Positions 4,061 through 15,773 of a DNA stretch of 64,000 nucleotides are shown here, one piece after another. Made by a program: the position numbers and the translations under genes. Source of the DNA: a virus; IMG/VR virus record IMGVR_UViG_3300045988_110279. One strand, given 5' to 3'. Every line of letters begins with the position of its first letter. The stretch's first letter is position 1. The notes beneath the pieces were generated by a model. The model had not been told where the DNA came from and searched no databases. It saw only the letters and a program-made list of their open reading frames with translations.

Positions 4061-4127
4061 AATAAGTTCTTTTAGTTAGAAAAAGCGTTATGATGCTTCT
4101 TAAACTAAAATCCTCCTTTTCTTTATC

Positions 4128-4160
4128 TTATGTATATATTATATTATATTTTTTATATAT
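4128..4160 (-). promoter_or_regulatory. candidate promoter for 3617..4060
   Basis: Minus strand reads TCGACA-17-TATAAT. Confidence 0.4.
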
Positions 4161-4239
4161 TGTCGAACCGATCGGGTCTAGATAAAAAGATCGCTTTAAC
4201 GGAATCCCGCGGAAAAGATTTTTACTTTTTAAATTGTTA

Positions 4240-4605
4240 GCAACATTTTTGCTATTGTTTGCTGTATCTTTAATAGTTTTAATTCTGTGAATATCAAGAA
4301 ATTTTGAGAAAAACGAGGCATTTTTTGCTTATTTTTAAGTAAATTTGTTAGAAAAATGCGCATTTTTGCAAGATTTTAGAGGTTTTTCGTTATATTTTGC
4401 GATAACAAGAGGTAAAGTCATGCGGGCCGATCAGTTTATCTAGCTAAAATCTCTATTTTTGAGCTATTTTTATCATAAAATCGTGTTAAACCGATCGGTT
4501 CCGCGAAAGAAATCTCTGGTCGTATTTGTTTTTCATAGGTATATCTTTGCTATTGCTAGTTGTATTTTAGAAAATTTTGGTACTGTGAATACTTGACAAT
4601 TTTAA
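4240..4605. repeat. pair of degenerate ~60-bp direct repeats
   Basis: tgctattgtttgctgtatctttaatagttttaattctgtgaatatcaag (about 4240) versus tgctattgctagttgtattttagaaaattttggtactgtgaatacttgac (about 4545). Confidence 0.5.
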
Positions 4606-4707
4606 GATTTTTATTATAAAAAATTGGACGAGAGAGCCAATATTGCTGGACCGATCGGAACTAGATAAAGGAAGAAGTAAAGTAGGGCCGATCGGTGTTT
4701 GGAAGAG

Positions 4708-4782
4708 GGCGTTATGAATTTTGGGAAAATCGCTATGAAGTTGCGTTATGGCCAAGTTGCTATGAAAATTTTGCGCTATGGT
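4708..4782. repeat. phased GC(G)TTATG / GCTATG(A/G) short repeats (5 copies, ~11-14 bp phasing)
   Basis: gcgttatgaa, cgctatgaag, gcgttatggc, gctatgaaaa, gcgctatggt. Confidence 0.5.
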
Positions 4783-4847
4783 CCGATCGGGGAAATTCGG
4801 GCCGAGTCGCCCGCGATCGGCCCGTCGAGTTTAGGAAATATAAAATA

Positions 4848-4871
4848 AAAAGAGAGGCCGAAGCCTCTCTT
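4848..4871 (-). terminator. intrinsic terminator
   Basis: agagaggc-cgaa-gcctctct followed by a T-run on the minus strand. Confidence 0.6.
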
Positions 4872-4874
4872 TTC

Positions 4875-5126
4875 TTAATCCTCGTTTTCTAAATTGATTT
4901 CTCCTATACAGTTACACCGTATCGGAGATTCAAAAACAAATTCATCTCCATATCCAACGATAGTTATTTCTCCATACTTTTTACAATACTCGTCTATCTT
5001 TTCGATTAGACTATTCCAATCTTTCTCTTGCGCTTTTTGTTTTCTAAGTGCCACTTCTTTATAGGCGGTAGCACTCAACCATTGCAACTCCTCATCATTC
5101 AGTTTGTTGAAATCAATATCAACCAT
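4875..5126 (-). CDS. hypothetical protein
   Basis: Track ORF, TAA stop. Confidence 0.55.
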   Translation of the reverse strand: MVDIDFNKLNDEELQWLSATAYKEVALRKQKAQEKDWNSLIEKIDEYCKKYGEITIVGYGDEFVFESPIRCNCIGEINLENED

Positions 5127-5143
5127 CTAAAAATCTCCTTTCT

Positions 5144-5596
5144 TTAATGAAAAATCTCAGCCGGAATTTCACTAAAAACTTGCTTAAATTGCTCCATAGT
5201 CAGTTCTCTTGCCGCTCTCTCAACCCTTTCTTTTGCCCAGTCGCAAACCATTTCGCAGGAAATAAATTTAATTTCATACCCAGTAATGGCGTAGATTTTA
5301 GGCGACCACTCAAATCTTTTTGTATCAGCCATATTTCCAGTTAAAATCATATATTCGCCGGTGGCTTGATTTTCTTCTGACTGTTCAACCCAACATTGAA
5401 CTATATTTTCAACATAGTTTTTTCCAGTTTTAACCGCTTCTTTTTCGGTTCGAGCATTGATTAAAAAGGTAGAAAGCATAATATCATCACGAAATGATAC
5501 CGTAAATTTATAAGGCTTCTTAGAGAAGATACCCTTGCGACCTTCACACCAAAAGGTAACTTGAAAATTAACACGAAATTGTTTTAAGCTTTCCAT
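5144..5596 (-). CDS. hypothetical protein
   Basis: Track ORF, TAA stop. Confidence 0.55.
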   Translation of the reverse strand: MESLKQFRVNFQVTFWCEGRKGIFSKKPYKFTVSFRDDIMLSTFLINARTEKEAVKTGKNYVENIVQCWVEQSEENQATGEYMILTGNMADTKRFEWSPKIYAITGYEIKFISCEMVCDWAKERVERAARELTMEQFKQVFSEIPAEIFH

Positions 5597-5768
5597 TTCT
5601 TTTATCTCCTGTAATAATCTTCAATATAAAATTTCATTTCTTTTTCTGTACTTTGTCTTAATACCGAATAAATAGTGGAAATGTCAAGGCAAGTTCTTTT
5701 AATTAAGAAACGAATGATAGAGTTTTTAAGTTTATTCATCATTTCTTTTACCTCCCTTCCATGGTTAA

Positions 5769-5797
5769 ATGATACCACATTTTCGGGAGAAAGTCAA
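5769..5797 (-). promoter_or_regulatory. sigma-A-type promoter TTGACT-17-TGgTATCAT
   Basis: Minus-strand -35/-10 with exact 17-bp spacer upstream of gene 5144..5596. Confidence 0.6.
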
Positions 5798-5806
5798 GCT
5801 GTCAAG

Positions 5807-5840
5807 TTGCACAAATTTTCAATTCAAAATTGTTGAAAAT
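5807..5840. promoter_or_regulatory. inverted-repeat operator TTGCACAA...TTGTTGAA
   Basis: One member of the repeated TTGCACAA-N-TTGTGCAA family, located just upstream of a -35 element. Confidence 0.5.
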
Positions 5841-5859
5841 GACAATAGAAGAAAAATTC

Positions 5860-5928
5860 GGACCGCGGCGCACGCAAGCGGTCCGCTCAAAATTTTGCAT
5901 AAAAAAATCTCCCCATAAGGGGAGATTT
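5860..5928 (-). terminator. tandem intrinsic terminators (GC hairpin 5860-5884; hairpin 5905-5928)
   Basis: Both stems are followed by T-runs on the minus strand. They lie downstream of gene 5933..6283. Confidence 0.6.
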
Positions 5929-5932
5929 TTCT

Positions 5933-6283
5933 TTAGTTGAGAATTATTGGATATGCCTTGCGAATAACCACCGTAACCATGGCCGGGGGAGTGTCGCACA
6001 AGAAACGATCATTTCTGATAAAACGACCAATTCCCATATTCTGCCACAAAGTCCGGTTTACATCCTCGTATCGTAGGGTATTATACTTGGAAAGTTTGAT
6101 ATGCCAATCATAGATAAAGGAACCATCTTCCGGCATGGTGTAATCTGGCGCCCGCTTATAATTTCTCGTATGCTCTGCGGCTCTGCGTTCAAGGTCATTT
6201 GTCGTACCAATCTTGAGAATATAGCGCCCCTTTTTGTCGATATAATGTCCGACATATAGGAACTCTTTTCCCCTTGTCTGCAA
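5933..6283 (-). CDS. GIY-YIG family nuclease
   Basis: FLYVGHY...YILKIGTTNDLERRAAEH matches the GIY...YIG...R...H(E) motif order. Confidence 0.55.
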   Translation of the reverse strand: MQTRGKEFLYVGHYIDKKGRYILKIGTTNDLERRAAEHTRNYKRAPDYTMPEDGSFIYDWHIKLSKYNTLRYEDVNRTLWQNMGIGRFIRNDRFLCDTPPAMVTVVIRKAYPIILN

Positions 6284-6339
6284 ACTAACTATAACTTGCC
6301 TCTTTTCTGGTAGGGCCGGGGTAGGCCGACCCTACCCCG

Positions 6340-6657
6340 TTATTTCTTCGGCTTACGCTTTTGCACAAGCGTCAACTCGAAACTATCCCCACCAATAGAA
6401 AACGCAATCTGTCTTTCCTTGTTAGTAATAGACAAGTCAGCGATAGAGAATTGACTGTTTTTTTCCAAAAACTCTGCCAATTCCGCAATTATACCGCCTT
6501 TCGTGGCGTTTGGCTTGCGTTGCCGTGTAGTGAACTTATATGCGGTTGGCTGTTTGCGCGTTCCAGCATGGGCAAACTTTTGAGCGATTTTCGCCTTTTC
6601 TGGCGGTAAATCGTATTCAGTCTTTTTATCAGCCTCTACCGCCTTATCATAGGCCAA
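6340..6657 (-). CDS. hypothetical protein
   Basis: Track ORF, TAA stop. GC hairpins flank it at 6302-6338 and 6762-6795. Confidence 0.5.
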   Translation of the reverse strand: MAYDKAVEADKKTEYDLPPEKAKIAQKFAHAGTRKQPTAYKFTTRQRKPNATKGGIIAELAEFLEKNSQFSIADLSITNKERQIAFSIGGDSFELTLVQKRKPKK

Positions 6658-6795
6658 TAAATCTGCCTCCTCTTCCGGCGTTAATTGCAGGGCTTTATAC
6701 CTTGCAATCCGTTCAGCGTCACTAATGCGACTGGATATAATATCACCCCCATATTATAAGTTAGGGCGGGGATTTTCACCCCGCCCTATACGGGG

Positions 6796-7206
6796 TTACG
6801 CCATCTTAAAGAGGGACTTGCCCTTCTTCTCCGTGCAGACTACTCGACCATCGAGTTTCAACTGCCGCACAAGAGCGGCGACCTTCTGGTTAGAATAGGC
6901 CGTCAGATCAGGAATAGCCTTAAAAATTTCCGTGCAGGTCACGCCATCGGTATCGGCGTCCAGACCAGCCAGATACTCCATAATCTGCTCCTTAAAGTTT
7001 TCGTTCTCCTGCTGGGTGGGAGTCAGCTTCTTGTCACCGCTGGAGCTATTCTTCTTACGCAGAAGCTCCAGCTCATGGTCAATGACAGTAATGGCCACCT
7101 CGATGGTAGTGCCATACTTTACCTCGCCGTCAGTCAAGAGGGCCTTAATGTCCTCAAAGCGCTGGGCCTTGGTAATGCGGATTTTCTTCTCGTCCATAAT
7201 ATACAT
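6796..7206 (-). CDS. hypothetical protein (possible C-terminal winged-helix)
   Basis: Track ORF. C-terminus reads KVAALVRQLKLDGRV. Confidence 0.5.
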   Translation of the reverse strand: MYIMDEKKIRITKAQRFEDIKALLTDGEVKYGTTIEVAITVIDHELELLRKKNSSSGDKKLTPTQQENENFKEQIMEYLAGLDADTDGVTCTEIFKAIPDLTAYSNQKVAALVRQLKLDGRVVCTEKKGKSLFKMA

Positions 7207-7245
7207 CCTTTCTGGTTTTTAGGACTGTCCTTGTCCTTTGATTAT

Positions 7246-7446
7246 ATTGTACCACACTATTTGGTACTTGTCAAGAGGTTTTTCAAACTTTTTTCAAGAA
7301 CTTTTGCTCTTTACTTGTTTGCCCTCTCAACCTCCCTTATAGTGTAACACACTTTGGAAAGTTTGTCAAGCCCTTTTTATTTAATTTTCAAGGTGCATTG
7401 CCTTGTTTTCTGTACTTATTATAGCACATCTTCAAAGGCTTGTCAA
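7246..7446 (-). promoter_or_regulatory. three tandem leftward promoters (P1 7246-7274, P2 7341-7369, P3 7418-7446)
   Basis: P1 is TTGACA-17-TACAAT, P2 is TTGACA-17-TACACT, P3 is TTGACA-17-TATAAT. All are on the minus strand. A 15-codon leader ORF with an AGGGAGG RBS lies between P2 and P1. Confidence 0.55.
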
Positions 7447-7553
7447 GAGATTCTTGAAAGATTTTTGAGAAATTCGCTGTCGCTGTCTGCCGTTCGTCTC
7501 TCTCACTTTCTGAATGTATTTTACCACAAGCAAAAGCAGATTGCAAGCGTCAA

Positions 7554-7632
7554 ATTGCACAAAAAATCTGAATTTTGGGAGAAAGTTTTTGTGCAGAATT
7601 TTACACAAAACGGAGCTGAAATTTTTGTGCAA
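7554..7632. promoter_or_regulatory. operator-like inverted repeats TTGCACAA / TTGTGCAG / TTGTGCAA
   Basis: Three half-sites of the same family. Confidence 0.5.
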
Positions 7633-7651
7633 CATTTACAAAGAAAAACTC

Positions 7652-7718
7652 GGGTCGCGCCGTTCCTGCGCGACCCGCTCAAATTTTGTATAAAAAAAGA
7701 AGGGCCGAAGCCCTTCTT
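7652..7718 (-). terminator. tandem intrinsic terminators
   Basis: gggtcgcgc...gcgcgaccc and aagaagggc-cgaa-gcccttctt, each followed by a T-run on the minus strand. Confidence 0.6.
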
Positions 7719-7900
7719 AACAGAAAATACAGTTATCCAGAAAATCAAACAGGTGTTCATCCTCAATGGGAACATTTACCAGCATATTTCCATCTTCGTC
7801 AATATCATCATGACACCATCCCATACGCTCAATAATTTGAATTGCCATATAAACGGCATCTGCGCACAGAGAAGAGGTATATACAGTTTTTGTTACCATT
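7717..7900 (-). CDS. small hypothetical protein (60 aa)
   Basis: Internal start MVTKT with a GAGGAGG RBS, inside track ORF 7717..8052. Confidence 0.4.
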
Positions 7901-8092
7901 TTATTCCTCCTCGAAATCATCAACTCCATATTGTCTCTGATATTCGTCACAGTCGAACCATGGCTCACCCAAAGAGCAACAAAGTGATTCCGTGTCAAAA
8001 TCTGGGCAGATAGTATCATAGATTTGTTCTGGGTCCATGCCTTCCTCGGCATAATGCGGGCAACTCCACCGCATACAATGAACTTGAGACAT
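7901..8092 (-). CDS. small acidic Cys-rich protein
   Basis: Track ORF of 63 aa. Confidence 0.4.
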   Translation of the reverse strand: MSQVHCMRWSCPHYAEEGMDPEQIYDTICPDFDTESLCCSLGEPWFDCDEYQRQYGVDDFEEE

Positions 8093-8119
8093 ATTATTTC
8101 CTTTCTGTCGGGCGGGGCT

Positions 8120-8911
8120 TTAAGCCCCTACCCGGATAGTTGGAATTGAACGCATACTTGCGGAAAGTTGACGCTGAAAATCTGTCATAGGTGGAAACTC
8201 TCTCTTATTCTCATACAGGGCCTTTCTCATGGGCTTATGCTGACGCATACAATACCACATGATTTCCGCCTCAATGAGAACATCCTCAAGCCCCGTATGA
8301 CTTTCTTCAAAATCGGTATTGCCAGAAATAAACCGCCACACGATTTCCGCAGTCTTACGAGGAACGCCATTGGCCTGGACATATCCGTTTTCCTGACAGA
8401 ATTTCTTATAAGTGGGCATATTGCAGATAACATCCTGTGTCATCTTCATAATGTCCCAGATTTCCACACTATCAAACGGGAACCAGTAGCGGAACTTGGA
8501 GCAAGTGACCCATCGTTGAGTGACCCGCAGAGCGTTATCGTCAAACCGGGCATTATAAGCAGCTACCTCTTTAATCCCGTATCGCTCGATGGTATCAAGC
8601 ATAGCCTGCCGGATTTCATAAGTTGTAGCCATCTTACGAGTGCCGGCCCGCAATTCTTCGACATAGCGGGGGATTTTCCAATTATAATAGGCCGTCCGCA
8701 TGAGATCCCGCTCATCGTTGAAAATGTCCCTATTTACAAAACTGGCAGTTTCATAAATATTGCCCTTGGTATCCACTACCGCCCATCCGCAATCATAGAC
8801 AAGAACGCAACTCATATCCATGCGGGCTTTGCCGTTTTCGTCAGTTTCAGTCAGTGTGTTAGCAGTTTCAGTATCAACCACCAAAACATAGTGTCTACGC
8901 TTATCAATCAT
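8120..8911 (-). CDS. DEDDh 3'-5' exonuclease (DnaQ/RNase T-like)
   Basis: Exo I motif VVDTETAN, Exo II motif AYNARFDDNAL and Exo III motif HTGLEDVLIEAEI. Confidence 0.75.
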   Translation of the reverse strand: MIDKRRHYVLVVDTETANTLTETDENGKARMDMSCVLVYDCGWAVVDTKGNIYETASFVNRDIFNDERDLMRTAYYNWKIPRYVEELRAGTRKMATTYEIRQAMLDTIERYGIKEVAAYNARFDDNALRVTQRWVTCSKFRYWFPFDSVEIWDIMKMTQDVICNMPTYKKFCQENGYVQANGVPRKTAEIVWRFISGNTDFEESHTGLEDVLIEAEIMWYCMRQHKPMRKALYENKREFPPMTDFQRQLSASMRSIPTIRVGA

Positions 8912-8943
8912 AATCTTTGACTTCCTTTCCTCTTGTTGAGTTT

Positions 8944-8972
8944 ATTATAGCACATATCATGCTTGATGTCAA
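8944..8972 (-). promoter_or_regulatory. promoter TTGACA-17-TATAAT
   Basis: Exact consensus on the minus strand upstream of the exonuclease gene. Confidence 0.65.
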
Positions 8973-9137
8973 GAGGAAAAGGAAATTTTTATTGCGATTT
9001 ACTGCAAGCTACTGGGCATTAGAACGGCCTATTCTAACGGCGTTCACTCGACTTACGACACAATATAAATTTACTTCCTTTACTTTCTAAGAGTTCGCGA
9101 CCTCTTGATTTCTTGGCCTTCCCCTCTTGACAAATAT

Positions 9138-9166
9138 ATAATACCATACTTTCGGGATAATTACAA
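9138..9166 (-). promoter_or_regulatory. promoter TTGTAA-17-TATTAT
   Basis: Cassette promoter. A short leader ORF with an AAAGGAAG RBS follows it. Confidence 0.4.
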
Positions 9167-9175
9167 GATGGCAAA

Positions 9176-9207
9176 TTGCACAAAATTTGCAAGCCAAAAT
9201 TGTGCAA
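9176..9207. promoter_or_regulatory. inverted repeat TTGCACAA-N16-TTGTGCAA
   Basis: Best-formed copy of the operator family. Confidence 0.55.
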
Positions 9208-9228
9208 CATCGACAAAAACAAAAACTC

Positions 9229-9300
9229 GGCTCGCCGCGTGCGCCAGCGAGCCGCCCAAACGATATTAAAGAGTAAAAATAAGAGGGCCGAAGCCCTCTT
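9229..9300 (-). terminator. tandem intrinsic terminators
   Basis: ggctcgc...gcgagcc and aagagggc-cgaa-gccctctt with T-runs on the minus strand. Confidence 0.6.
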
Positions 9301-9487
9301 AATATCCAAGATATTCTTTATTAATAATCTCGTCAAGCCAATAGCTCAAATCTTCAAGCGAAATATCGTCATCAATTTCATTGTCGGCCATAACCTGATC
9401 AATTTGACCAATGAGAATGGACGCATTTTTCAATACTTGTCGCTCTTCCTCGCTGAGGATAAGCCTATTAACCTTTCTAATCTTCAT
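9299..9487 (-). CDS. small acidic hypothetical protein
   Basis: Track ORF of 62 aa ending at the terminator. Confidence 0.5.
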   Translation of the reverse strand: MKIRKVNRLILSEEERQVLKNASILIGQIDQVMADNEIDDDISLEDLSYWLDEIINKEYLGY

Positions 9488-9527
9488 TTACAAAACTTCC
9501 TTTCTTATTTTAAGATTGACTGGTGGA

Positions 9528-9992
9528 TTACTCTACCAGTCGCCATAAGGCCGTAGGTAAATCTTCATGCGGTTCGATTGTTTCTCCTAAATGCCAACCA
9601 TCCCGCACACTTTTATTATCGTCAATCAAAATAAAATTGCTAACCCCCGGCTCGAAGTATTTTCGCACACAGTTTGCTTTTGTTGTGCCATATTCCACAA
9701 GGTGGACTTTATGTGCGGGGAAGTTGTATTTTGCAAGCCAAGTGCGCTTTGCATCACGGACAGCGGTTTTATATGAGTTAGAACTGTCTTTTGCAAGCCA
9801 ACTGATAACCCGAATTTCCCAGCCCTGCTCAATAAGTTTATTGAGAACGGTATTCAATTCTTCCATATCGCAAAGAGGTTTAGCGACTGTATATGGATAG
9901 GGGTTTTCATTCATTAAATCTTTCAGCCATCCATCTACGCCGTACAGGTCAGCGATTGTTCCATCCATATCAAAGCAGAGCATCTTTTTCAT
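9528..9992 (-). CDS. HAD-superfamily 5'-nucleotidase-like phosphatase
   Basis: N-terminal CFDMDGTIADL (the DxDGT motif I). Confidence 0.55.
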   Translation of the reverse strand: MKKMLCFDMDGTIADLYGVDGWLKDLMNENPYPYTVAKPLCDMEELNTVLNKLIEQGWEIRVISWLAKDSSNSYKTAVRDAKRTWLAKYNFPAHKVHLVEYGTTKANCVRKYFEPGVSNFILIDDNKSVRDGWHLGETIEPHEDLPTALWRLVE

Positions 9993-10024
9993 TTTGATTT
10001 ACTTCCTTTCTTTAGGTTGATTAA

Positions 10025-10053
10025 AGTATATCAGATTTCGGGATAGAAAACAA
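10025..10053 (-). promoter_or_regulatory. promoter TTGTTT-17-TATACT
   Basis: Cassette promoter upstream of gene 9528..9992. Confidence 0.4.
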
Positions 10054-10061
10054 GAGGCAAA

Positions 10062-10093
10062 CTGCACAAAATTTCGGCTGGAAAATTGTGCAA
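10062..10093. promoter_or_regulatory. inverted repeat CTGCACAA...TTGTGCAA
   Basis: Operator family copy. Confidence 0.5.
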
Positions 10094-10114
10094 CTTCTAC
10101 AAAAGAGAAAATTC

Positions 10115-10193
10115 GGCGCGCCACGCACGTTAGCGCGCCGCCGAGAAGCCTATTCAAAAAATGGGATAAAAAAGAGGGCCGAAGCCCTCTTTT
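10115..10193 (-). terminator. tandem intrinsic terminators
   Basis: ggcgcgc...gcgcgcc and aagagggc-cgaa-gccctctt. Confidence 0.6.
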
Positions 10194-10653
10194 ATCTTTC
10201 ACATATATTTGCAAGAAATCTTGCAGAAAGTTTAACCATGTCATGGACAGATTCTTCGTTATTGCTATTTTTATAGCAAATAAAACCAACCTGGTCGCCA
10301 TTCACAAGAATTGGTGTAATAAACATACTTTCCCATTTTGTCGCCGAACTGCGAATATCAATCCAGTCATCGGGAACTCTTGTAATTCCAAAGGAACGCG
10401 GCCCGCATAAAATTCCATCATTGTCAAAAATAGCCGCGGCGATTCCGTTAGATGAAAGGGCATTTTGCATTTGTTTAGCGTAAGAGGAAAATTCTCCCAT
10501 TATAGAATATTTCTTAAAAACTACGCCGCCATCTTCTTCAAGAAAAATCTCTAATGGGTCGCCTTCTCTAATATGAAGGCTTCTACGGATTTCCTTTGGA
10601 ATTACTATCCGGCCCAAATCATCAATACGGCGCACAATTCCAGTAGCTTTCAT
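10192..10653 (-). CDS. AbrB/SpoVT-family transcriptional regulator (N-terminal swapped-hairpin domain plus C-terminal GAF-like domain)
   Basis: MKATGIVRRIDDLGRIVIPKEIRRSLHIREGDPLEIF matches the AbrB/SpoVT N-domain. Confidence 0.75.
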   Translation of the reverse strand: MKATGIVRRIDDLGRIVIPKEIRRSLHIREGDPLEIFLEEDGGVVFKKYSIMGEFSSYAKQMQNALSSNGIAAAIFDNDGILCGPRSFGITRVPDDWIDIRSSATKWESMFITPILVNGDQVGFICYKNSNNEESVHDMVKLSARFLANICER

Positions 10654-10705
10654 TTTTATCTGCGGGAGTGCAAGATTTATAGTCTTGCACTCCCTTCCTC
10701 CATTC

Positions 10706-11098
10706 TTAATCCAGTTCTTTCAACATCCGTTCGAGGTCAGCTTTAGTACCACCCAACTCAAGCGTAAGAATAATTTCCGTTACGGCATTTTTCTCCCAGT
10801 CGCTAACTTCCCGCATGGCCTTTTTCTTCTCGTTCTCCATAGCGGGGTAAATACAATCCTGGCAAGCCTCTACCAGCCGGTCATTATATCTGCGGAAACT
10901 CATCCCCTTGTTTTTAACCTCCGAAAGAAGTTCGTCGTTAAGGGCTTTTACCGCCTGCTTAACTTTCTCCTGCATGATTTTACACTCTGTCTCATAAGCG
11001 GAAAAGGTTTCATGGACAGCCTGCCTCTTGATTTCAGCCTTTACTCCAACTTCCTTTTCAATATACTCCCGAACAACCTTACTAACACGCATTTCCAA
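10706..11098 (-). CDS. hypothetical protein
   Basis: Track ORF. Confidence 0.5.
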   Translation of the reverse strand: MEMRVSKVVREYIEKEVGVKAEIKRQAVHETFSAYETECKIMQEKVKQAVKALNDELLSEVKNKGMSFRRYNDRLVEACQDCIYPAMENEKKKAMREVSDWEKNAVTEIILTLELGGTKADLERMLKELD

Positions 11099-11144
11099 AA
11101 CTTCCTTTCTTAATTTTAATTTTTATTTATCGGGGTCGCCCCTT

Positions 11145-11180
11145 CCATGGTCTTATTGTACCATAGTTGGGGCGATTTGT
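11145..11180 (-). promoter_or_regulatory. promoter TTGACA-17-TACAAT
   Basis: Minus strand reads ggggTTGACAaatcgccccaactatggTACAAT. Confidence 0.6.
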
Positions 11181-11187
11181 CAACCCC

Positions 11188-11340
11188 TTACATCAAAGTT
11201 TTTGCAAGATACGCAAACATTAAAATCTCCGCCGCAAACATGATTTCAAGTCCTATGCAATCTCTTTCAATAGCGGCTACAAATTGCCATACCAGACATA
11301 GAACAAAAGCAATCAGAATTATCATGGTAAAAGTTGTCAT
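11188..11340 (-). CDS. small membrane protein (~50 aa)
   Basis: Internal start MTTFTMIILIAF with a GGGGTGAG RBS. Confidence 0.4.
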   Translation of the reverse strand: MTTFTMIILIAFVLCLVWQFVAAIERDCIGLEIMFAAEILMFAYLAKTLM

Positions 11341-11344
11341 ATAC

Positions 11345-11602
11345 TCACCCCGCAAAGGAAACTTCCGCAAAGTTGATATTGAAACGCTCCCATTCACTTT
11401 CCATACCTAACATCATATCATGGAAAAGGTCATCACGATTTTCATATCCATCTTCTTCCAGAATAGCCTCCCATTCTCCATCGTCATATTGATTTTCCAG
11501 ATAATCCAAAGCAGACTTGCGGGCGGCGATGGTATTAGACGCTACGCAGATAGGTTTATCGTCGTATCCGTCCGTGACCAAAATCATTTTCTTTTCTTCC
11601 AT
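11345..11602 (-). CDS. acidic hypothetical protein
   Basis: Start MEEKKM with RBS AAAGGAAAG, TGA stop. Confidence 0.45.
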   Translation of the reverse strand: MEEKKMILVTDGYDDKPICVASNTIAARKSALDYLENQYDDGEWEAILEEDGYENRDDLFHDMMLGMESEWERFNINFAEVSFAG

Positions 11603-11655
11603 GATTTTTTCTTTCCTTTCTTTCGAGGTGTTTCTGTCTCCCTCTTTCTGATAAT

Positions 11656-11684
11656 AATATACCACAGGCAAAGCAGAAAGTCAA
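11656..11684 (-). promoter_or_regulatory. promoter TTGACT-17-TATATT
   Basis: Cassette promoter. Confidence 0.45.
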
Positions 11685-11713
11685 GCGATTTTAGGAAAAA
11701 ATCTTTCGTCAGA

Positions 11714-11745
11714 TTGCACAACAATTCGAGCCTAAAATTGTGCAA
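11714..11745. promoter_or_regulatory. inverted repeat ATTGCACAA...TTGTGCAA
   Basis: Operator family copy. Confidence 0.5.
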
Positions 11746-11767
11746 ATTGCCTCTTGATAAAAAATTC

Positions 11768-11835
11768 CGGCCGCGCCTGTGGTGCACGGCCGGGCGAACA
11801 AATAAAAAAAAAGAACCTCCTGAATTTCAGGAGGT
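11768..11835 (-). terminator. tandem intrinsic terminators
   Basis: cggccg...cggccg and acctcctg-aattt-caggaggt. Confidence 0.55.
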
Positions 11836-11875
11836 CATTAATTTCTGCATACCAACAACTCCCTTTCTTTTGAGA

Positions 11876-12106
11876 AGTCAATCGGCATTTTCAACAATCT
11901 TTAATCCGTTTGCTTGGATAATTTTCATAGATTCTTCAAGCGAGGAATCAACCGATCCGCAGTCAATACAGATATATTTTCTACCATCTTTTACCATAGT
12001 AGTGAAATAGTATTCCTAACCGGAAGTAAGTCCCATTTGTTCACGCAAACGAATCGGAATCATAATTCTACCACTTGAATCTAATTTGCGAGAGAAAGTA
12101 GTTTCT
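11876..12106 (-). CDS. AbrB/MazE-like swapped-hairpin DNA-binding protein with one in-frame TAG
   Basis: MQETTFSRKLDSSGRIMIPIRLREQMGLTSG(TAG)EYYF... The frame is complete only if TAG is sense. No obvious SD. Confidence 0.4.
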
Positions 12107-12175
12107 TGCATTTTGATAAATAAATTCTAGTGACCTAGGCTCGTGCGAAAAACGACTCCATCACGGGAATCGCCG

Positions 12176-12313
12176 ATTTAGAACAATCGGAAGGAACATT
12201 TACCACTCGCAAGGCATTTTCTGGCAGAACTGAGACATAGGACAATTTTACAAGAATCCTAGTTCAAACAGAACTCCAAAATAACCGCAAGCGCTTTCAG
12301 CACTTCTAAGGTC
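12176..12313 (-). CDS. small Cys-rich protein (45 aa, one TAG)
   Basis: RBS AAAGGAG 8 nt before the ATG. Confidence 0.3.
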
Positions 12314-12516
12314 ATTAGAAAAACTCCTTTCTTTATTTTTCTATAATTATTATAATATATTTTTTTGAAAAAATCAATAGGGCCGGCATTACGCCAGCCC
12401 TAATCTCTGCAACCAAACCAGATGGTATTTACCAATGTGAAGTAGAACTGTGCCATATCCCTTATCCGTCCAGACAGTGGAGCCGATAGGATATGTGTGC
12501 GGTAAACGCTCAATAC

Positions 12517-12732
12517 TCACTTTAGTTCCACCTCCTCGAAAGCTCCAATTTTTAGCAGATAATTATATAAGGCTCTATCTTGCTTGTCACCGGTATTAAA
12601 ATCAAGTGTACGAACACAGCCGGTAACATTGGAATTGAGAGGATGACCCAAACACCAACCAGCCATATTACAAATTGTGTTTCCAAACTCCGCAGATTTT
12701 TCTACACTTTCAAATTTAATAACAGCAATCAT
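12517..12732 (-). CDS. hypothetical protein
   Basis: Track ORF of 71 aa. Confidence 0.45.
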   Translation of the reverse strand: MIAVIKFESVEKSAEFGNTICNMAGWCLGHPLNSNVTGCVRTLDFNTGDKQDRALYNYLLKIGAFEEVELK

Positions 12733-12755
12733 ATTTATTCCTCCTTTTTATCATG

Positions 12756-12786
12756 GGGAGTGGAGATTTATGGCCTCCACTCCCGC
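12756..12786. promoter_or_regulatory. intergenic hairpin gggagtggag...ctccactccc
   Basis: Perfect 10-bp stem between two minus-strand genes, immediately 5' of an RBS. Confidence 0.5.
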
Positions 12787-12794
12787 AAGTTTTC

Positions 12795-13034
12795 TTAACC
12801 ATCTACATAAATGATTAAATTGTTATCTCTTGCCTCAATGCCGGTTACCTGAAGTCCCAGAACCCATTCCTTAGATACCTCGATTACGTCTCCTCCCAGA
12901 GTTATTCTACCATCAGGTAATTCGTGGTAATGAGCTTGGGTATTCTTATTGATAATTTCGAATCCCTCCCCGTCAAAGAACATAGTATCTTCTGCAAGCG
13001 GAGAAAGTAACCAAGCAACCATATCTAAAGTCAT
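12795..13034 (-). CDS. hypothetical protein (79 aa)
   Basis: Start MTLDMVAW with RBS AAAGGAAG. Confidence 0.45.
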   Translation of the reverse strand: MTLDMVAWLLSPLAEDTMFFDGEGFEIINKNTQAHYHELPDGRITLGGDVIEVSKEWVLGLQVTGIEARDNNLIIYVDG

Positions 13035-13086
13035 TTTTTTACTTCCTTTCAAATTCTTTTTGTGGCCTGTCCCTTTGGACAAGTAT

Positions 13087-13115
13087 ATAATAACACATGG
13101 CAAAAGGAATGTCAA
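13087..13115 (-). promoter_or_regulatory. promoter TTGACA-17-TATTAT
   Basis: Cassette promoter. Confidence 0.55.
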
Positions 13116-13143
13116 GTAATTTCGGGAGAAAAACTTTCGTCGA

Positions 13144-13180
13144 ATTGCACAGACTTTCGGTCATATAATTGTTGAAATTG
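13144..13180. promoter_or_regulatory. degenerate operator inverted repeat ATTGCACAG...ATTGTTGAAATTG
   Basis: Family member. Confidence 0.4.
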
Positions 13181-13198
13181 CCGAATAAATAAAAATTC

Positions 13199-13287
13199 GG
13201 GCCGCGGCGCACGCTGGCGGCCCGGCGAAAAGTCAATATGGAAAAGTGCATAAAAATGACTGGCAATCTTTGTGTAGATTGCCAGTC
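13199..13287 (-). terminator. tandem intrinsic terminators
   Basis: gggccgc...gcggccc and gactggcaatc-tttgtgtag-attgccagtc, both with T-runs on the minus strand. Confidence 0.6.
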
Positions 13288-13300
13288 AAGTATTATTCCT

Positions 13301-13534
13301 TTACAGCTCCATGGTTTCCATGAGATAGCCCGTGCCCATCGGCACCTCCCGCAGATTGCTGGGACTTATACGCAACTTATATTTCCTATTGATTTTATTC
13401 GCCGCACTTGTCTTATCTCTTGCTTGGACAATTACTGGTATATGGAGTTTATTCAGAGTGGGCTTATTAAGACTGAAATATCCCATCTCTCTGCGCTTGC
13501 GGCCCATGGCGTCGATATAAGTCCCTCTATACAT
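13301..13534 (-). CDS. small basic protein
   Basis: Track ORF with AGGAGG RBS. Confidence 0.5.
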   Translation of the reverse strand: MYRGTYIDAMGRKRREMGYFSLNKPTLNKLHIPVIVQARDKTSAANKINRKYKLRISPSNLREVPMGTGYLMETMEL

Positions 13535-13547
13535 TTTTTTCCTCCTA

Positions 13548-13700
13548 TTATTTAGTCATGAGAACGAACATATTATATTCGCTGTGCTGTGGGTTTGGCT
13601 CACAGTTATCCGCCACTATATCAGCCCAACTAAGAACTGCCCAGAGTAGGAGAGCGGCACAAATGCCGCCTCCTATCCGCTTAATAATTCTCATTTCCAT
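13548..13700 (-). CDS. small membrane protein (50 aa)
   Basis: MEMRIIKRIGGGICAALLLWAVL with a GGAGG RBS. Confidence 0.35.
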   Translation of the reverse strand: MEMRIIKRIGGGICAALLLWAVLSWADIVADNCEPNPQHSEYNMFVLMTK

Positions 13701-13993
13701 TTCTTTGCCTCCTGTTCTTTAACCCATTCAGTACCGATTGTATCTCCGACCATAGCAATCTTATATTCGTCTTCGCTTGCAATTCTGGTATGCAGATTGC
13801 TATTGATAAACTTTCTATTGATATAAGCCCAGTGTGGCATATAGGCCACTCGCATGGCATTAAAAGCATCCAGGTCTAAGATGATGCCGTCCTCTACCTC
13901 TGCGGAACACACATTCATCTTATACCGCAAAAGTTTAATAAATTCACGCTTTCTAAAAGTAGGCCCAACGAACCACTTAATATAATTGTTCAT
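13691..13993 (-). CDS. hypothetical protein
   Basis: Track ORF with RBS GGGGAGAAAGG. Confidence 0.5.
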   Translation of the reverse strand: MNNYIKWFVGPTFRKREFIKLLRYKMNVCSAEVEDGIILDLDAFNAMRVAYMPHWAYINRKFINSNLHTRIASEDEYKIAMVGDTIGTEWVKEQEAKKWK

Positions 13994-14038
13994 AGTCTTT
14001 TATCCTTTCTCCCCGTATAGCCGTTAGGTCAGCTTCTT

Positions 14039-14185
14039 TTTAATCTACGATTTCTCCACTGGATAAATCTACAATCCAATGATTGGGATTGACTATCTCG
14101 TGACTGGCTTTCCATCTTGCCATTGAAAGGGTGGATGGTTCATAATAGCGCATTTTCTCATTGGCTAAAACCTGTAATTGATACA
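14039..14185 (-). CDS. small hypothetical protein (48 aa)
   Basis: RBS GAAAGGGG 7 nt before the ATG. Confidence 0.3.
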
Positions 14186-14260
14186 TATAGTATACCCCTT
14201 TCTTTTAATTATTATAACCCTGCCTTGCCTTGTGTTTTGCAAGGCAGGGTTTATAAACTG

Positions 14261-14634
14261 TTATCCTCTAATTTCTTCTTCTTGGGTCTTTGTCGCCCAA
14301 TCAAAAGAGGTACGAATATCGGAAGGTCTGCGGAATTGCTCTGCTTCGGCCTCTGTCCCGCCTAATGCCATAGCATAGGCTTTCCAGTCAACCGTTCCTT
14401 TTGCGGTAGTTTCTTTATATACCACCGCTTTCGCCTTACCCTGCATTTGTACCGTGCCATATAGATAACTTGTTTTGTCCGTAGCCTTAAAAGCCTTACC
14501 TAATCTGGAAAATAGCTCTTTAGCCTTAGCCTTAGCTGCTTTCTCCGCCGCCTCCGCCGCAGACTTAGCCATCTTAGCGGCCATATACTCCATAATAATG
14601 GCTCGATCTTCATTGGTAAAATCAATCTTTTTCA
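14261..14634 (-). CDS. hypothetical protein with Ala/Lys-rich coiled coil (possibly Gam-like)
   Basis: Internal start MKKIDFTNEDR within track ORF 14261..14698. The family assignment is speculative. Confidence 0.4.
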
Positions 14635-14688
14635 TACTCTTTTGACTCCCTTTCTTTTTGTGGTGTGGTTCTCTTTTGTTCTGTCTGT

Positions 14689-14717
14689 ATTGTATCAAAC
14701 CTTTAGCAGTTTGTCAA
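14689..14717 (-). promoter_or_regulatory. promoter TTGACA-17-TACAAT
   Basis: Exact consensus on the minus strand. Confidence 0.65.
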
Positions 14718-14842
14718 TACCTTTTTTGAAATTTTTTAATTTTCAAAGTGCCGTGCTTTTGTCTCTGTCCTACTGGACAAGTCCAGTTTACCACCAAAAT
14801 GTTCACTTGTCAATAGTTTTTTTGAAATTTCTTTCTCTCTCT

Positions 14843-14873
14843 TTTGCACAAAATAAATAACATCTTGTTGTGC
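14843..14873. promoter_or_regulatory. inverted repeat TTGCACAA...TTGTGCAG
   Basis: Operator family copy. Confidence 0.5.
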
Positions 14874-15085
14874 AGTTTGCATAAACCCTTTACGCGCGCG
14901 TATTCCTTTAGGGGTGTGCTTTCTTGCTTTCGTACTTTAACGAGTGAAAGAGGCCAACTACACTTCAATACTTTACCATGTGAAAGAGGGGCGTGTATTT
15001 TGGGAAAAACTGGAAATTTTTTTGTAAAATCGTTCTGCCACGCCATTTCAAAATCTAAATCGACTTTTCAATCTCAATAACGAAA

Positions 15086-15113
15086 AAGAGAGAAGAACTC
15101 ACTTCTTCTCTCC
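15086..15113 (-). terminator. intrinsic terminator
   Basis: gagagaag-aactcac-ttcttctc plus a T-run on the minus strand. Confidence 0.55.
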
Positions 15114-15130
15114 GCATTTACAATATAATC

Positions 15131-15370
15131 TTATCCATCGTCGGTTGCTTCAAAATTAAAAATCAAATTATATCCATCCTCAGTTTCTATCATTTCATAT
15201 CCTTTTAAGATATATCCATCCTCTAGTTTAATATTAGTCGCATCAGATCTCCACATTGTAGGAATATACTCTAGCCTTGGATAACGATCGTTCTCCTTTC
15301 CGCAAGCAGTTAACAACAATACGATTAATATTATGTTAATTATAAAGCTGATACTTCTTCCCAATTTTAT
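15131..15370 (-). CDS. lipoprotein (signal peptide with LTAC lipobox)
   Basis: TTG start after a GGAGG RBS gives LIKLGRSISFIINIILIVLLLTACG... It overlaps the 3' end of the PTH2 gene. Confidence 0.45.
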   Translation of the reverse strand: MKLGRSISFIINIILIVLLLTACGKENDRYPRLEYIPTMWRSDATNIKLEDGYILKGYEMIETEDGYNLIFNFEATDDG

Positions 15371-15773
15371 CAATTTCTTCCGCCTCCATTGGCCTAAATC
15401 CAATACACGTCAAAGTCCCTTCCGGGCCTTCACGCTCTAACTCCGTCCTACAAGCATCATAAATAAGCCAGTAGTCTTTATTCTCTTCCCATCCTAATTC
15501 TTTAGCCATTGCAACAGCTTTTAGCAAATCATTCTTATTCTTCGCTCTACAAACTACTTTGGTCTCCGCTTCCGCTATCCAATTATGGAATAAGTCTCTA
15601 TCGAGGCTTATTCCTATATGATACATAAGACCGTCTCTTTCTTTAACAACTTCTTTACTTCCCCAATATAACTTTTCCAAAAGAAAAGCAATAGAAGCAT
15701 GGGAAACTTGTGCGGCAAGTTTCCCTGGAGACATATTTAAGTCTCGCCTCGCAATAATTAATTGCTTGAACAT
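15336..15773 (-). CDS. peptidyl-tRNA hydrolase, PTH2 family
   Basis: LIIARRDLNMSPGKLAAQVSHAS... with C-terminal ...TLTCIGFRP...KKYQLYN, resembling PTH2 (KMVLVVRxDLKMGKGKxAAQCSHA). Confidence 0.65.
   Translation of the reverse strand: MFKQLIIARRDLNMSPGKLAAQVSHASIAFLLEKLYWGSKEVVKERDGLMYHIGISLDRDLFHNWIAEAETKVVCRAKNKNDLLKAVAMAKELGWEENKDYWLIYDACRTELEREGPEGTLTCIGFRPMEAEEIDKIGKKYQLYN

Follow-up and report, generated by a model that had tools for sequence, protein, structure and literature searches.

What role is played by a sequence block that recurs between the small leftward genes of a phage? This question is raised by a stretch of 64,000 nucleotides from the IMG/VR virus record IMGVR_UViG_3300045988_110279, which was analysed over its full length (the window). 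Between 4.8 and 15.1 kb, the minus strand carries seven intergenic blocks of about 150 bases each, in which a gene-proximal hairpin (T1), a second, GC-rich hairpin (T2), a 32-bp inverted repeat (the dyad, TTGCACAA-N16-TTGTGCAA) and a predicted promoter follow each other in this order. Our reading, which we hold to be just on the probable side, is that these blocks form an array of mobile early-gene regulatory cassettes, composed of T1, T2, dyad and sigma-A promoter, in a TAG-recoded phage of gut Clostridia that is related to phage phAss-1.

Composition of the cassettes

A sequence-only reading of this DNA had listed one repeated module at the leftward sites, and all of these copies exist on the minus strand. 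The seven cassettes lie within 10 kb, with none elsewhere in the 64 kb. T1 is present in 7/7 blocks and is followed after about 20-30 nt by T2, from which about 12 nt lead to the distal octamer TTGCACAA of the dyad; the 16-nt centre of the dyad is A/T-rich, and the dyad lies upstream of the -35 hexamer throughout. T2 was found in 6/7 blocks, the 14.8 kb copy being without it, and in a further copy at 4.8 kb. Two successive terminators had been claimed for each of at least eight modules: both hairpins were recovered in six of the cassettes, in the order T1 and then GC-rich T2, and the eighth copy (4.8 kb) consists of these two hairpins, with neither dyad nor promoter. The half-site spacing, previously put at 16-20 bp, had to be corrected to exactly 16 bp in the window, with two exceptions, namely a pair with N26 and an arm so degenerate that both N15 and N16 can be read. 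The composite terminator-promoter cassettes were confirmed as well, although they bound about seven units of 2-5 genes each and not every early gene singly. Most of the genes between the cassettes gave no Pfam or PHROG match; they are small and their function is not assigned.

The comparison with shuffled sequence that had been proposed for these motifs placed octamers, dyads, terminators and promoters all above the shuffles. The region 5701-14900 holds 10 of the 11 exact octamers of the window (block shuffles: mean 0.35, max 3), the exact dyad occurs twice (0 in 100 shuffles), and terminator-like and promoter-like sites numbered 31 and 56, where 10.6 +/- 3.8 and 32 +/- 6 were expected. A cassette profile built from three cassettes of the window produced 184 matches; from about 45 loci of related phages it recovered 102 full-length cassettes that are unique, at a density of 4-8 per 20-kb locus. 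These loci, designated by L and a number, are pieces of 1-20 kb, and statements on the absence of a gene refer to these pieces only. Conserved columns of the cassette are the octamers (70-100% per position), TTTG(A/C)C, the -35 (cTTG), a box TCCCGAAA and TGnTAtAaT.

T1 and T2 consist at all sites of a GC-rich stem-loop directly followed by a U-tract. Four copies of T1 are near-identical (AAGAGGGC-TTCG-GCCCTCTT), and T2 has a stem of 8-10 bp, a GC-rich loop of 7-11 nt and then A(A/G)TTTTT, the T-run being present on the minus (coding) strand only and three T's after the stem being invariant or nearly so. Every T1+T2 stretch folded as two separate hairpins, with z-scores of -2.5 to -6.7. When 36 distinct copies were compared, 98.3% of the cells of the 8-bp T2 stem were paired and 51 double-sided changes were spread over 6/8 pairs; 0/500 shuffles reached the observed covariation, and slid controls were paired to 27-45%. 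This covariation argues that the T2 stem is under selection. From its sequence we infer that T2 is an intrinsic terminator belonging to the cassette, which would insulate it from any upstream unit joined to it by recombination.

Consensus scans revealed a promoter in every cassette copy of the window and likewise in the 102 unique cassettes from relatives. The cassettes are numbered M1 to M7 and the promoterless copy M0 (Table 1). TGn precedes the -10 in M1-M6, and the cassette promoters appear to be sigma-A-like with an extended -10. The consensus -35 TTGAC(A/T) described before needs correction: where a dyad is present, the -35 hexamer is in most cases weak (TTGTAA, TTGTTT, TTGCAA, TTGACT), and the perfect TTGACA-17-TAYAAT promoters, at 7446, 7369, 7274, 8972 and 14717 inside the intervals listed before and also at 11183, form a second class without dyad. 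Tandem promoters stand 77-96 bp apart, three of them before the gene 6796-7197 (the winged-helix gene, see below) and two (14689-14813) before the gene 14261-14635; both groups, at 7246-7446 and 14689-14813, share upstream A-rich stretches and similar short leaders. These tandem consensus promoters resemble an immediate-early class that is separate from the promoters linked to a dyad.

The conserved TCCCGAAA spacer box, which like the recombination described below goes beyond the sequence-only reading, distinguishes by its place two subtypes of the cassette, which is also longer than described before. In M1, M3 and M4 the -35 starts 8-9 bp past the proximal octamer and the box is located in the spacer between -35 and -10. 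A box or box-like motif stands upstream of the -35 in M2, M5 and M6. M5 and M6 have about 20 extra bases with such a motif (TTCCTAAAAT in M5, TCCCGAAA in M6) between dyad and -35, which results in a 29-bp gap, and their promoter spacers are CTGCTTTGCC and the related CCTTTTGCC, respectively. M2 has a CTGCTTTTGC-type spacer, and its box TCCCAAAA is enclosed by an N26 octamer pair that ends 8 bp before the -35. The box is a TTTCNNGAAA-like near-palindrome and belongs to the most conserved cassette columns; the four exact copies of TCCCGAAA in the window are all in cassettes and in one orientation. Past the -10, the leaders of some cassette copies are alike (repeat families D10 and D20).

Phasing and spread of the dyad

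When IMG/VR was scanned for the exact dyad, at least 119 stretches were obtained, of which at least 20 have genes in common with the window and many others are without detectable similarity to it. The real dyad was represented by at least 124 unique sites, of which 99 (80%) had the N16 spacing, 67% had promoter-like sequence within 60 nt and 46% a phased gap. A composition-matched control dyad gave 35 sites with flat spacing (N16 in 13), and promoter-like sequence and phased gap at 3% and 0% of them. For a control dyad with swapped orientation, the corresponding values were 73 sites, N16 in 35, 7% and 3%.

The distance between dyad and -35 was then compared over all loci, where 242 unique dyad-plus-promoter contexts formed 152 clusters. 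The gap was 8-9 bp in 71 clusters, 18-19 bp in 28 and 28-30 bp in 13; additional peaks were seen at 32-35 bp (12 clusters) and at 24 bp (7 clusters from one distinct phage family), and almost no clusters had gaps between these peaks. The same peaks were obtained when the contexts were anchored on the extended -10 alone. A perfect TTGACA was found at 34% of the sites with a gap of 8-9 bp vs 71% of those with 18-19 bp, and the hexamers of the four 8-9-bp-gap promoters of the window (TTGACT, TTGCAA, TTGTAA, TTGTTT) are likewise suggestive of a poor -35. If the -35 hexamer is set at -35 to -30, the dyad centres come to lie near -61, -71 and -82, which are known positions of class I activators. Divergent promoters often flank the dyad, with a gap of 8-9 bp on one side and of 19 bp on the opposite side, and lone octamers without partner were found at the same distances from promoters. 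A dyad wholly upstream of the -35, with quantised gaps and weaker -35 hexamers at the closest distance, points to an upstream element of activator type that is coupled to RNA polymerase, not to a classical operator.

Beyond viral records, a composite motif of dyad, 8-9 bp and TTGAC was present in 55 genome contigs, where fewer than one contig would be expected by chance, as estimated from the count of specified bases. Their labels were mostly Clostridia (Acutalibacteraceae, Oscillospiraceae, Lachnospiraceae, Coprococcus, Ruminococcus), and about 20 of the 55 were phage contigs of the window's family. A Clostridia host is inferred for the phage, with the labels of metagenome-assembled genomes being weak evidence for host identity.

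A single dyad between divergent promoters was also observed at L189 (849-880), L198 (6505-6536), L155 (887-918) and L188 (6041-6072). These loci, which belong to mobile elements or chromosomes, come from genomes of Acutalibacter and Oscillospiraceae, have 52-54% G+C and, except for one short protein-level match in L198 and L155, are without detectable similarity to the window. In all four, the centre of the dyad and the spacers of both promoters are occupied by a family-specific palindrome (e.g. ATACTCGCGTGAGTAT), and at least in L189, L198 and L155 one promoter is followed by a gene of the small-protein family that is commonest at unrelated dyad loci; its sequence pattern is ribbon-helix-helix-like. 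The layout looks like that of a genetic switch on the same octamer scaffold. Elsewhere, compact palindromes TTGTGCAA-N1-TTGCACAA adjoin standard dyads to form arrays with a 33-bp period (L109, 4371-4440; L003, about 290-336; L016, about 5340-5370; L027, about 1590-1610), and some dyad sites use the fully palindromic octamer TTGTACAA. The compact palindromes hint at the octamer as the basic binding unit.

Exchange of units, genetic code and competing explanations

Gene-order maps of 14 relatives revealed that whole units were gained, lost or moved at cassette borders. One relative, L120, whose 263-amino-acid protein is 99% identical to that of the window, is without the four-gene unit between M5 and M4. 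Its single cassette at this place equals M5 up to GGCAATTTGCACAATTTT and M4 from CCAGCCGAAATTTTGTGCAG onward, that is, the upstream half of M5 was joined to the downstream half of M4, and this hybrid make-up locates the crossover inside the shared TTGCACAATTTT. Among the relatives, the HAD-like gene was found in three different units, and a gene for 46 amino acids moves between units. The cassettes are thus recombination substrates, as shown by the L120 junction.

The window has 35% G+C and its genes are phage-like. Open reading frames of at least 200 amino acids numbered 13 under the standard code vs 36 with TAG as sense codon, and the plus-strand genes of 18160-55853 became contiguous once TAG was read in this way. 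These late genes contain 22.7 TAG per 1000 codons (291 TAG vs 314 CAA+CAG). In the small AbrB-like gene, the TAG column of the alignment holds glutamine in relatives, which indicates that the phage uses code 15 (TAG = glutamine). The early genes driven by the cassettes (4875-15403, minus strand) have 0 in-frame TAG. This absence fits early translation by the unmodified host, and the avoidance of the recoded codon is consistent with early-gene status. No tRNA gene was found within the 64-kb window, and Rfam models, applied to its full length with their gathering thresholds, found no match.

The AbrB-like gene (11878-12111, minus strand), which lies inside the early region, does have an in-frame TAG. 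It was observed at three codons, one each in L124/L042, in the window/L122/L123 and in L137/L133/L136/L027, and each of them is glutamine elsewhere. A small open reading frame just upstream in the same unit (12177-12314, minus strand) also has TAG, and the unit has an AT-rich promoter of its own at 12349-12377, without dyad. With the TAG in frame, the full-length regulator would be makeable only after the code switch.

To our knowledge, metagenomes are so far the only source of TAG-recoded gut phages like phAss-1, and the organisation of their transcription is undescribed. When the 11-kb region was compared by BLAST with 50,697 phage records, the sole match was one of 58 bp to phAss-1; the M3 cassette gave two short matches only, to unrelated records (E 0.1 and 0.4), and neither the region nor M3 had a match to a T4-type phage in this collection. 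The published phage phAss-1 is itself TAG-recoded; its authors describe it as siphovirus-like and predict a host among the Clostridia (PMC10607447). In that paper, the words promoter, terminator and inverted repeat are all absent (PMC10607447). The phAss-1 genome (L335, OQ749652) has the same dyads at 5214-5245 and 7389-7420, at about 126.7 and 128.9 kb of the record, plus cassette-like matches, and the surrounding genes have hypothetical products. At 7389-7420, the dyad is perfect; its centre holds a TTTCTCCCGGAA box, and it is flanked by promoters to either side.

In the cassette reading introduced above, T1 would end the preceding unit, and T2 would travel with the cassette and stop read-through from whatever is upstream. 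The 32-bp dyad would be bound by a two-fold symmetric protein, and a host sigma-A extended -10 promoter would drive 2-5 small early genes that keep to the standard code. The centre of the dyad would lie about 61 bp upstream of the start in M1-M4 and about 81-82 bp in M5-M7, on the same helical face as RNA polymerase. Most likely, the dyad helps the polymerase to use promoters with a weak -35, as an upstream site of class I type, and its binder is a host factor or a factor common to Clostridial phages. Early promoters have to work at a time when no phage protein has yet been made, and the simplest assumption is therefore a generic factor, which is probably host-encoded. The TCCCGAAA box would be bound by a phage protein that shuts off the early genes; by analogy with the family-specific palindromes in the promoter spacers of unrelated elements, the box is a better candidate than the dyad for a phage-specific shut-off operator. 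Being direct repeats, the cassettes recombine with each other, by which units are deleted, inserted and moved, as the L120 junction shows. A further-reaching proposal, possible but on balance doubtful, is that the dyad is the site of an undescribed and widely conserved transcription factor or RNA polymerase accessory protein of gut Clostridia, which many unrelated phages and mobile elements place in phase with their promoters; here it would drive the standard-code early units until a phage protein, for which the 77-amino-acid AbrB-like protein is a candidate, acts on TCCCGAAA to shut them off.

Several points weigh against the cassette reading. Terminator and promoter function were assigned from sequence, structure and covariation, and the activating role of the dyad from its position, phasing and weaker -35 hexamers; repression, too, can be exerted from upstream sites in phase. 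The gap peaks at 24 bp (one distinct family) and 33 bp are off phase, the latter of which fits the arrays with a second octamer pair 33 bp away. For host chromosomes, the evidence on the dyad comes from one locus type of Coprococcus catus with chromosomal-looking genes and an unconvincing promoter. With one mismatch allowed, TCCCGAAA was not enriched window-wide (44 vs 43.8 expected). Many counted sites are orthologous copies, which makes the counts partly dependent, and clustering lessens this effect. As a regular feature of dyad centres, the TCCCGAAA box was rejected: it occurs in 7% of dyads vs 1.7% background, a minority feature.

Two alternatives treat parts of the cassette as structures in RNA or DNA. 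The octamers are mutual reverse complements around the A/T-rich 16-nt centre and could pair as an RNA or DNA hairpin, serving as attenuator or cruciform, but deviations in one arm were nearly never compensated in the other (162 uncompensated vs 1 compensated), and the dyads of the window are upstream of the predicted transcription start. We consider such a hairpin extremely unlikely; arms that decay without compensation speak for a protein site. For T2, a role mainly as RNA element (5' stabiliser, processing site or antitermination signal) or as protein-bound DNA cruciform, not as terminator, might be seen in its unusually GC-rich loops, often with GCGTGCGC or GCGCACGC, in the apparent redundancy of T1 and T2 as successive terminators, and in similar GC hairpins directly past the -10 of strong promoters in L003, L016, L050 and L104. 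This is nevertheless quite improbable given the invariant, coding-strand-only T-run after the stem, a stem sequence that varies freely with compensation, loops that are not conserved between copies, and its place past T1 but ahead of the following promoter, in DNA from which hardly any RNA is expected if T1 works.

Other explanations concern the protein that would recognise the dyad. The sole mapped crossover falls inside the distal octamer plus TTTT, and the cassettes plainly mediate rearrangements, so that the dyad could be a recombination or DNA-level site, a target of a recombinase or of a replication or packaging protein, which is carried by duplicated cassettes and has no transcriptional role. 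Ordinary homologous recombination in the longest shared stretch explains the crossover, however, and a fixed, helically phased distance to promoters in unrelated phages, often with the dyad between divergent promoters, is unlike a pure recombination site; we regard this as very improbable. A stronger competitor, which we still judge unlikely, is that the dyad is the operator of one phage repressor that shuts all early units, namely the SpoVT-like (10192-10653), AbrB-like (11878-12111) or winged-helix (6796-7197) protein. The sequence-only reading had proposed an operator for one common regulator, with AbrB/SpoVT-like proteins as binders. Its protein-site part agrees with the conserved dyad at every unit, the AbrB-like gene is present in all close relatives, and the winged-helix family, whose model ends in a winged helix, occurs in 24/24 related loci and 31 other dyad-carrying loci; the winged-helix gene itself follows three tandem consensus promoters and the M2 cassette with its dyad plus second octamer pair. 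The operator part fared less well, as the dyad lies 8-30 bp upstream of the -35 and never overlaps core promoter or start. Nor is the dyad private to a regulator of this phage: it also stands at phage and mobile loci unlike the window and at the chromosomal-looking Coprococcus catus locus, including loci without a homologue of the three candidate proteins. The SpoVT-like gene is missing from six relatives that keep the cassettes (L120, L124, L128, L133, L134, L141), AbrB-type reading frames were found in the window's family plus a few others and not at unrelated dyad loci, and the fold matches of the winged-helix protein are weak (E 3e-3 or worse).

The candidates differ accordingly in their standing as binders. 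The N-domain of the SpoVT-like protein is of AbrB/MazE type (E 1e-12), while its match to SpoVT_C stayed below threshold, and its gene is served by a dyad-less consensus promoter; the protein was rejected as dyad binder, being dispensable and missing from the 99%-identical L120 with its cassettes. The 77-amino-acid AbrB-like protein is open as dyad binder but unsupported. The 133-amino-acid product of 6796-7197 gave no Pfam or PHROG match, and its model (pLDDT 88) has a C-terminal winged helix that is predicted to be weakly like ArsR, MarR, Fur, Z-alpha and TubR; no member was found at unrelated dyad loci with the family profile. It remains a candidate regulator and cannot explain the dyad in unrelated elements. 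The proteins most common near dyads are this one, a basic protein of 105 amino acids (6340-6657), the 263-amino-acid protein (8120-8911), the HAD-like protein and the AbrB family; all of them occur only within the broad family to which the window belongs.

Known binding sites were compared as well. Text searches of the literature for the octamers returned only primers and eukaryotic C/EBP sites and no link to a bacterial or phage promoter. The Spx/alpha-CTD element of Bacillus subtilis trxB (TTGAGCAAAAAAA, AGCA at -45 to -42), the paper on which holds both octamers, was rejected: the distance of its GC from the -35 is shorter by about 3 bp, the site stands alone and forms no dyad, and A is needed where the octamer has T. 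LexA, Rex, CRP/FNR, CodY, Spo0A, SpoIIID, BirA, AraR, DnaA boxes and the sigma-54 promoter were compared with the octamer, and none is known to fit in both sequence and spacing.

Some further observations concern the neighbourhood of the cassettes (Table 1). In distant relatives, a strong promoter 19 bp from the dyad is immediately followed by a GC-rich hairpin, in some cases with T-run (L050, 7191-7387; L104, 3424-3540; L003, 1280-1400 and 1689-1800; L016, 7736-7860 and 9798-9900); transcripts would here start at or inside the hairpin, which could be a 5' stabiliser, an attenuator or the source of a very short RNA. L050 has the order dyad, promoter, T2, dyad, promoter, gene. In the window, the promoterless T1/T2 copy is followed by a non-coding stretch of 730 bp (4100-4830) with 5/7 of the window's CCGATCGG palindromes (0.2 expected) and repeated ATAGCG/ATAACGC motifs, which could be a replication origin or genome-end region; its start, T2 plus CCGATCGG, is kept in L123, L124 and L142. 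Between the gene for a 130-amino-acid protein and the SpoVT-like gene, a hairpin with 12-bp stem (GGGAGTGCAAGA...TCTTGCACTCCC; 10664-10700, minus strand) parts the Shine-Dalgarno-like run GGAGGAAGGGAG from the ATG at 10653, which has no adjoining Shine-Dalgarno sequence; this may be a split ribosome-binding site joined by the hairpin, or translational control. Upstream of its first TTG start (6657-6760, minus strand), the gene of the 105-amino-acid basic protein continues as an open frame over about 30 codons, with GGGGGTGA a few bases before ATT/ATA, and homologues in relatives have about 130 amino acids. It may use a non-standard start codon.

Table 1. Cassette elements and dyad-less consensus promoters of the window (promoters are predicted; gap, distance from dyad to -35)
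Feature	Position	Strand	Remarks
M0 T1 hairpin	4847-4874	-	GAAAAGAGAGGCTTCGGCCTCTCTTTTT
M0 T2 GC-rich hairpin	4799-4823	-	copy without dyad or promoter; opens the 4.1-4.8 kb non-coding stretch
M1 T1 hairpin	5903-5930	-	
M1 T2 GC-rich hairpin	5859-5885	-	then AATTTTT
M1 dyad	5807-5838	-	proximal arm TTGTGCAA 5807-5814; distal arm degenerate (TTCAACAA/TTTCAACA)
M1 promoter	5769-5797	-	TTGACT-17-TGgTATCAT; spacer box TCCCGAAA 5781-5788; gap 9 bp
M2 T1 hairpin	7697-7718	-	AAGAAGGGCTTCGGCCCTTCTT
M2 T2 GC-rich hairpin	7651-7677	-	
M2 upstream dyad	7601-7632	-	TTGCACAA-N16-TTGTGTAA
M2 second octamer pair	7555-7596	-	CTGCACAA-N26-TTGTGCAA, enclosing box TCCCAAAA 7573-7580
M2 promoter	7518-7546	-	TTGCAA-17-TGgTAAAAT; 8 bp from proximal octamer
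M3 T1 hairpin	9281-9300	-	AAGAGGGCTTCGGCCCTCTT
M3 T2 GC-rich hairpin	9228-9254	-	
M3 dyad	9176-9207	-	perfect, TTGCACAA-N16-TTGTGCAA
M3 promoter	9138-9166	-	TTGTAA-17-TGgTATTAT; spacer box TCCCGAAA 9150-9157; gap 9 bp
M4 T1 hairpin	10171-10192	-	
M4 T2 GC-rich hairpin	10114-10140	-	
M4 dyad	10062-10093	-	TTGCACAA-N16-TTGTGCAG
M4 promoter	10025-10053	-	TTGTTT-17-TGaTATACT; spacer box TCCCGAAA 10036-10043; gap 8 bp
M5 T1 hairpin	11814-11836	-	
M5 T2 GC-rich hairpin	11767-11793	-	
M5 dyad	11714-11745	-	perfect; crossover of the L120 unit deletion in distal arm plus TTTT
M5 promoter	11656-11684	-	TTGACT-17-TGgTATATT; gap 29 bp with box-like TTCCTAAAAT 11688-11697
M6 T1 hairpin	13257-13288	-	
M6 T2 GC-rich hairpin	13198-13224	-	
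M6 dyad	13145-13176	-	TTCAACAA-N16-CTGTGCAA, degenerate
M6 promoter	13087-13115	-	TTGACA-17-TGtTATTAT; gap 29 bp with box TCCCGAAA 13120-13127
M7 terminator hairpin (T1)	15087-15113	-	no T2 at this site
M7 dyad	14844-14875	-	CTGCACAA-N16-TTGTGCAA
M7 promoter	14785-14813	-	TTGACA-17-TGgTAAACT; gap 30 bp
Consensus promoter without dyad	14689-14717	-	TTGACA-17-TACAAT, TG; tandem, downstream of M7
Three tandem consensus promoters without dyad	7246-7446	-	7418-7446, 7341-7369, 7246-7274; before winged-helix gene 6796-7197
Consensus promoter without dyad	8944-8972	-	immediately before gene 8120-8911
Consensus promoter without dyad	11155-11183	-	before 130-amino-acid gene and SpoVT-like gene 10192-10653

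Comparison with known systems

Among described systems, the PeSL (promoter-early stem-loop) cassettes of T4-type phages combine a strong early promoter of host type with a stem-loop terminator, lie among small unassigned genes and recombine with each other, which gives rise to differences between close relatives (Arbiol et al. 2010, PMC2839356; Comeau et al. 2014, PMC4122927). The cassettes of the window are likewise small repeated composites of promoter and stem-loop among small genes of unassigned function, and indels and replacements between close relatives end in them, as seen in L120 and in the gene-order maps. Unlike in PeSL, the terminator stands well upstream of the promoter and not within or adjoining it, and a 32-bp dyad and a conserved spacer box are added. 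No sequence relation was found, and the cassettes do not belong to the PeSL family by descent; the inferred host here is a member of the Clostridia and not Gram-negative, and the phage resembles the siphovirus-like phAss-1, not a T4-type phage. With an early region built from exchangeable cassettes, the PeSL principle would no longer be limited to T4-type phages and their Gram-negative hosts but would include a Clostridia phage, and the mosaic gene content of these phages would be explained.

The position of the dyad recalls class I activator sites. E. coli CRP acts from -61.5, -71.5 and -82.5, and the p4 protein of phi29 binds an inverted repeat with a 15-bp spacer that is centred near -82. 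Shared features are a dyad upstream of the -35, distance steps of whole helical turns and the use of one site for divergent promoters; the -35 hexamers at the closest gap are suggestive of a weak -35 here, too. In contrast, the half-sites are 24 bp apart from centre to centre, where CRP has about 11 bp and p4 has 21 bp. The putative activator site of the window also recurs at each early unit and is common to many phages. The strictly spaced and phased dyad, which marks promoters in hundreds of sequences from Clostridial phages and mobile elements, points to an undescribed regulator or polymerase contact, and it may mark an undescribed regulator of gut Clostridia.

In the Streptomyces phage phiC31, the conserved inverted repeats (CIRs) are reportedly 17-bp operators of the phage's own repressor, at early promoters that are said to differ from standard sigma-70 promoters (Ingham, Smith and colleagues, 1993-94). 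They resemble the cassettes in their many near-identical intergenic early copies, which join terminator, inverted repeat and similar promoter, whereas the dyad of the window has 32 bp, stands upstream of standard promoters and occurs in unrelated elements, too. The stoperators of cluster A mycobacteriophages are asymmetric sites of 13-14 bp, which are oriented with transcription, lie in transcribed DNA and block elongation (PMC9283540). With them, the dyad has in common that one site type is repeated across the intergenic regions of a phage, in tens of copies for the stoperators; unlike them, it is symmetric and placed between a terminator and the next promoter.

As ready-made insulated parts, the cassettes could provide promoters and terminators for Clostridia. 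The avoidance of TAG in the cassette-driven genes, as opposed to its presence in the embedded regulator-like gene, ties transcription timing to the code switch. Finally, the morons of lambdoid phages are single unrelated insertions of promoter, gene and terminator that are expressed from the prophage. The units of the window are similar in being autonomous, with promoter and terminator of their own, and in being gained or lost as blocks; they differ in forming an ordered array with one common cassette, in the early region of a seemingly lytic programme.

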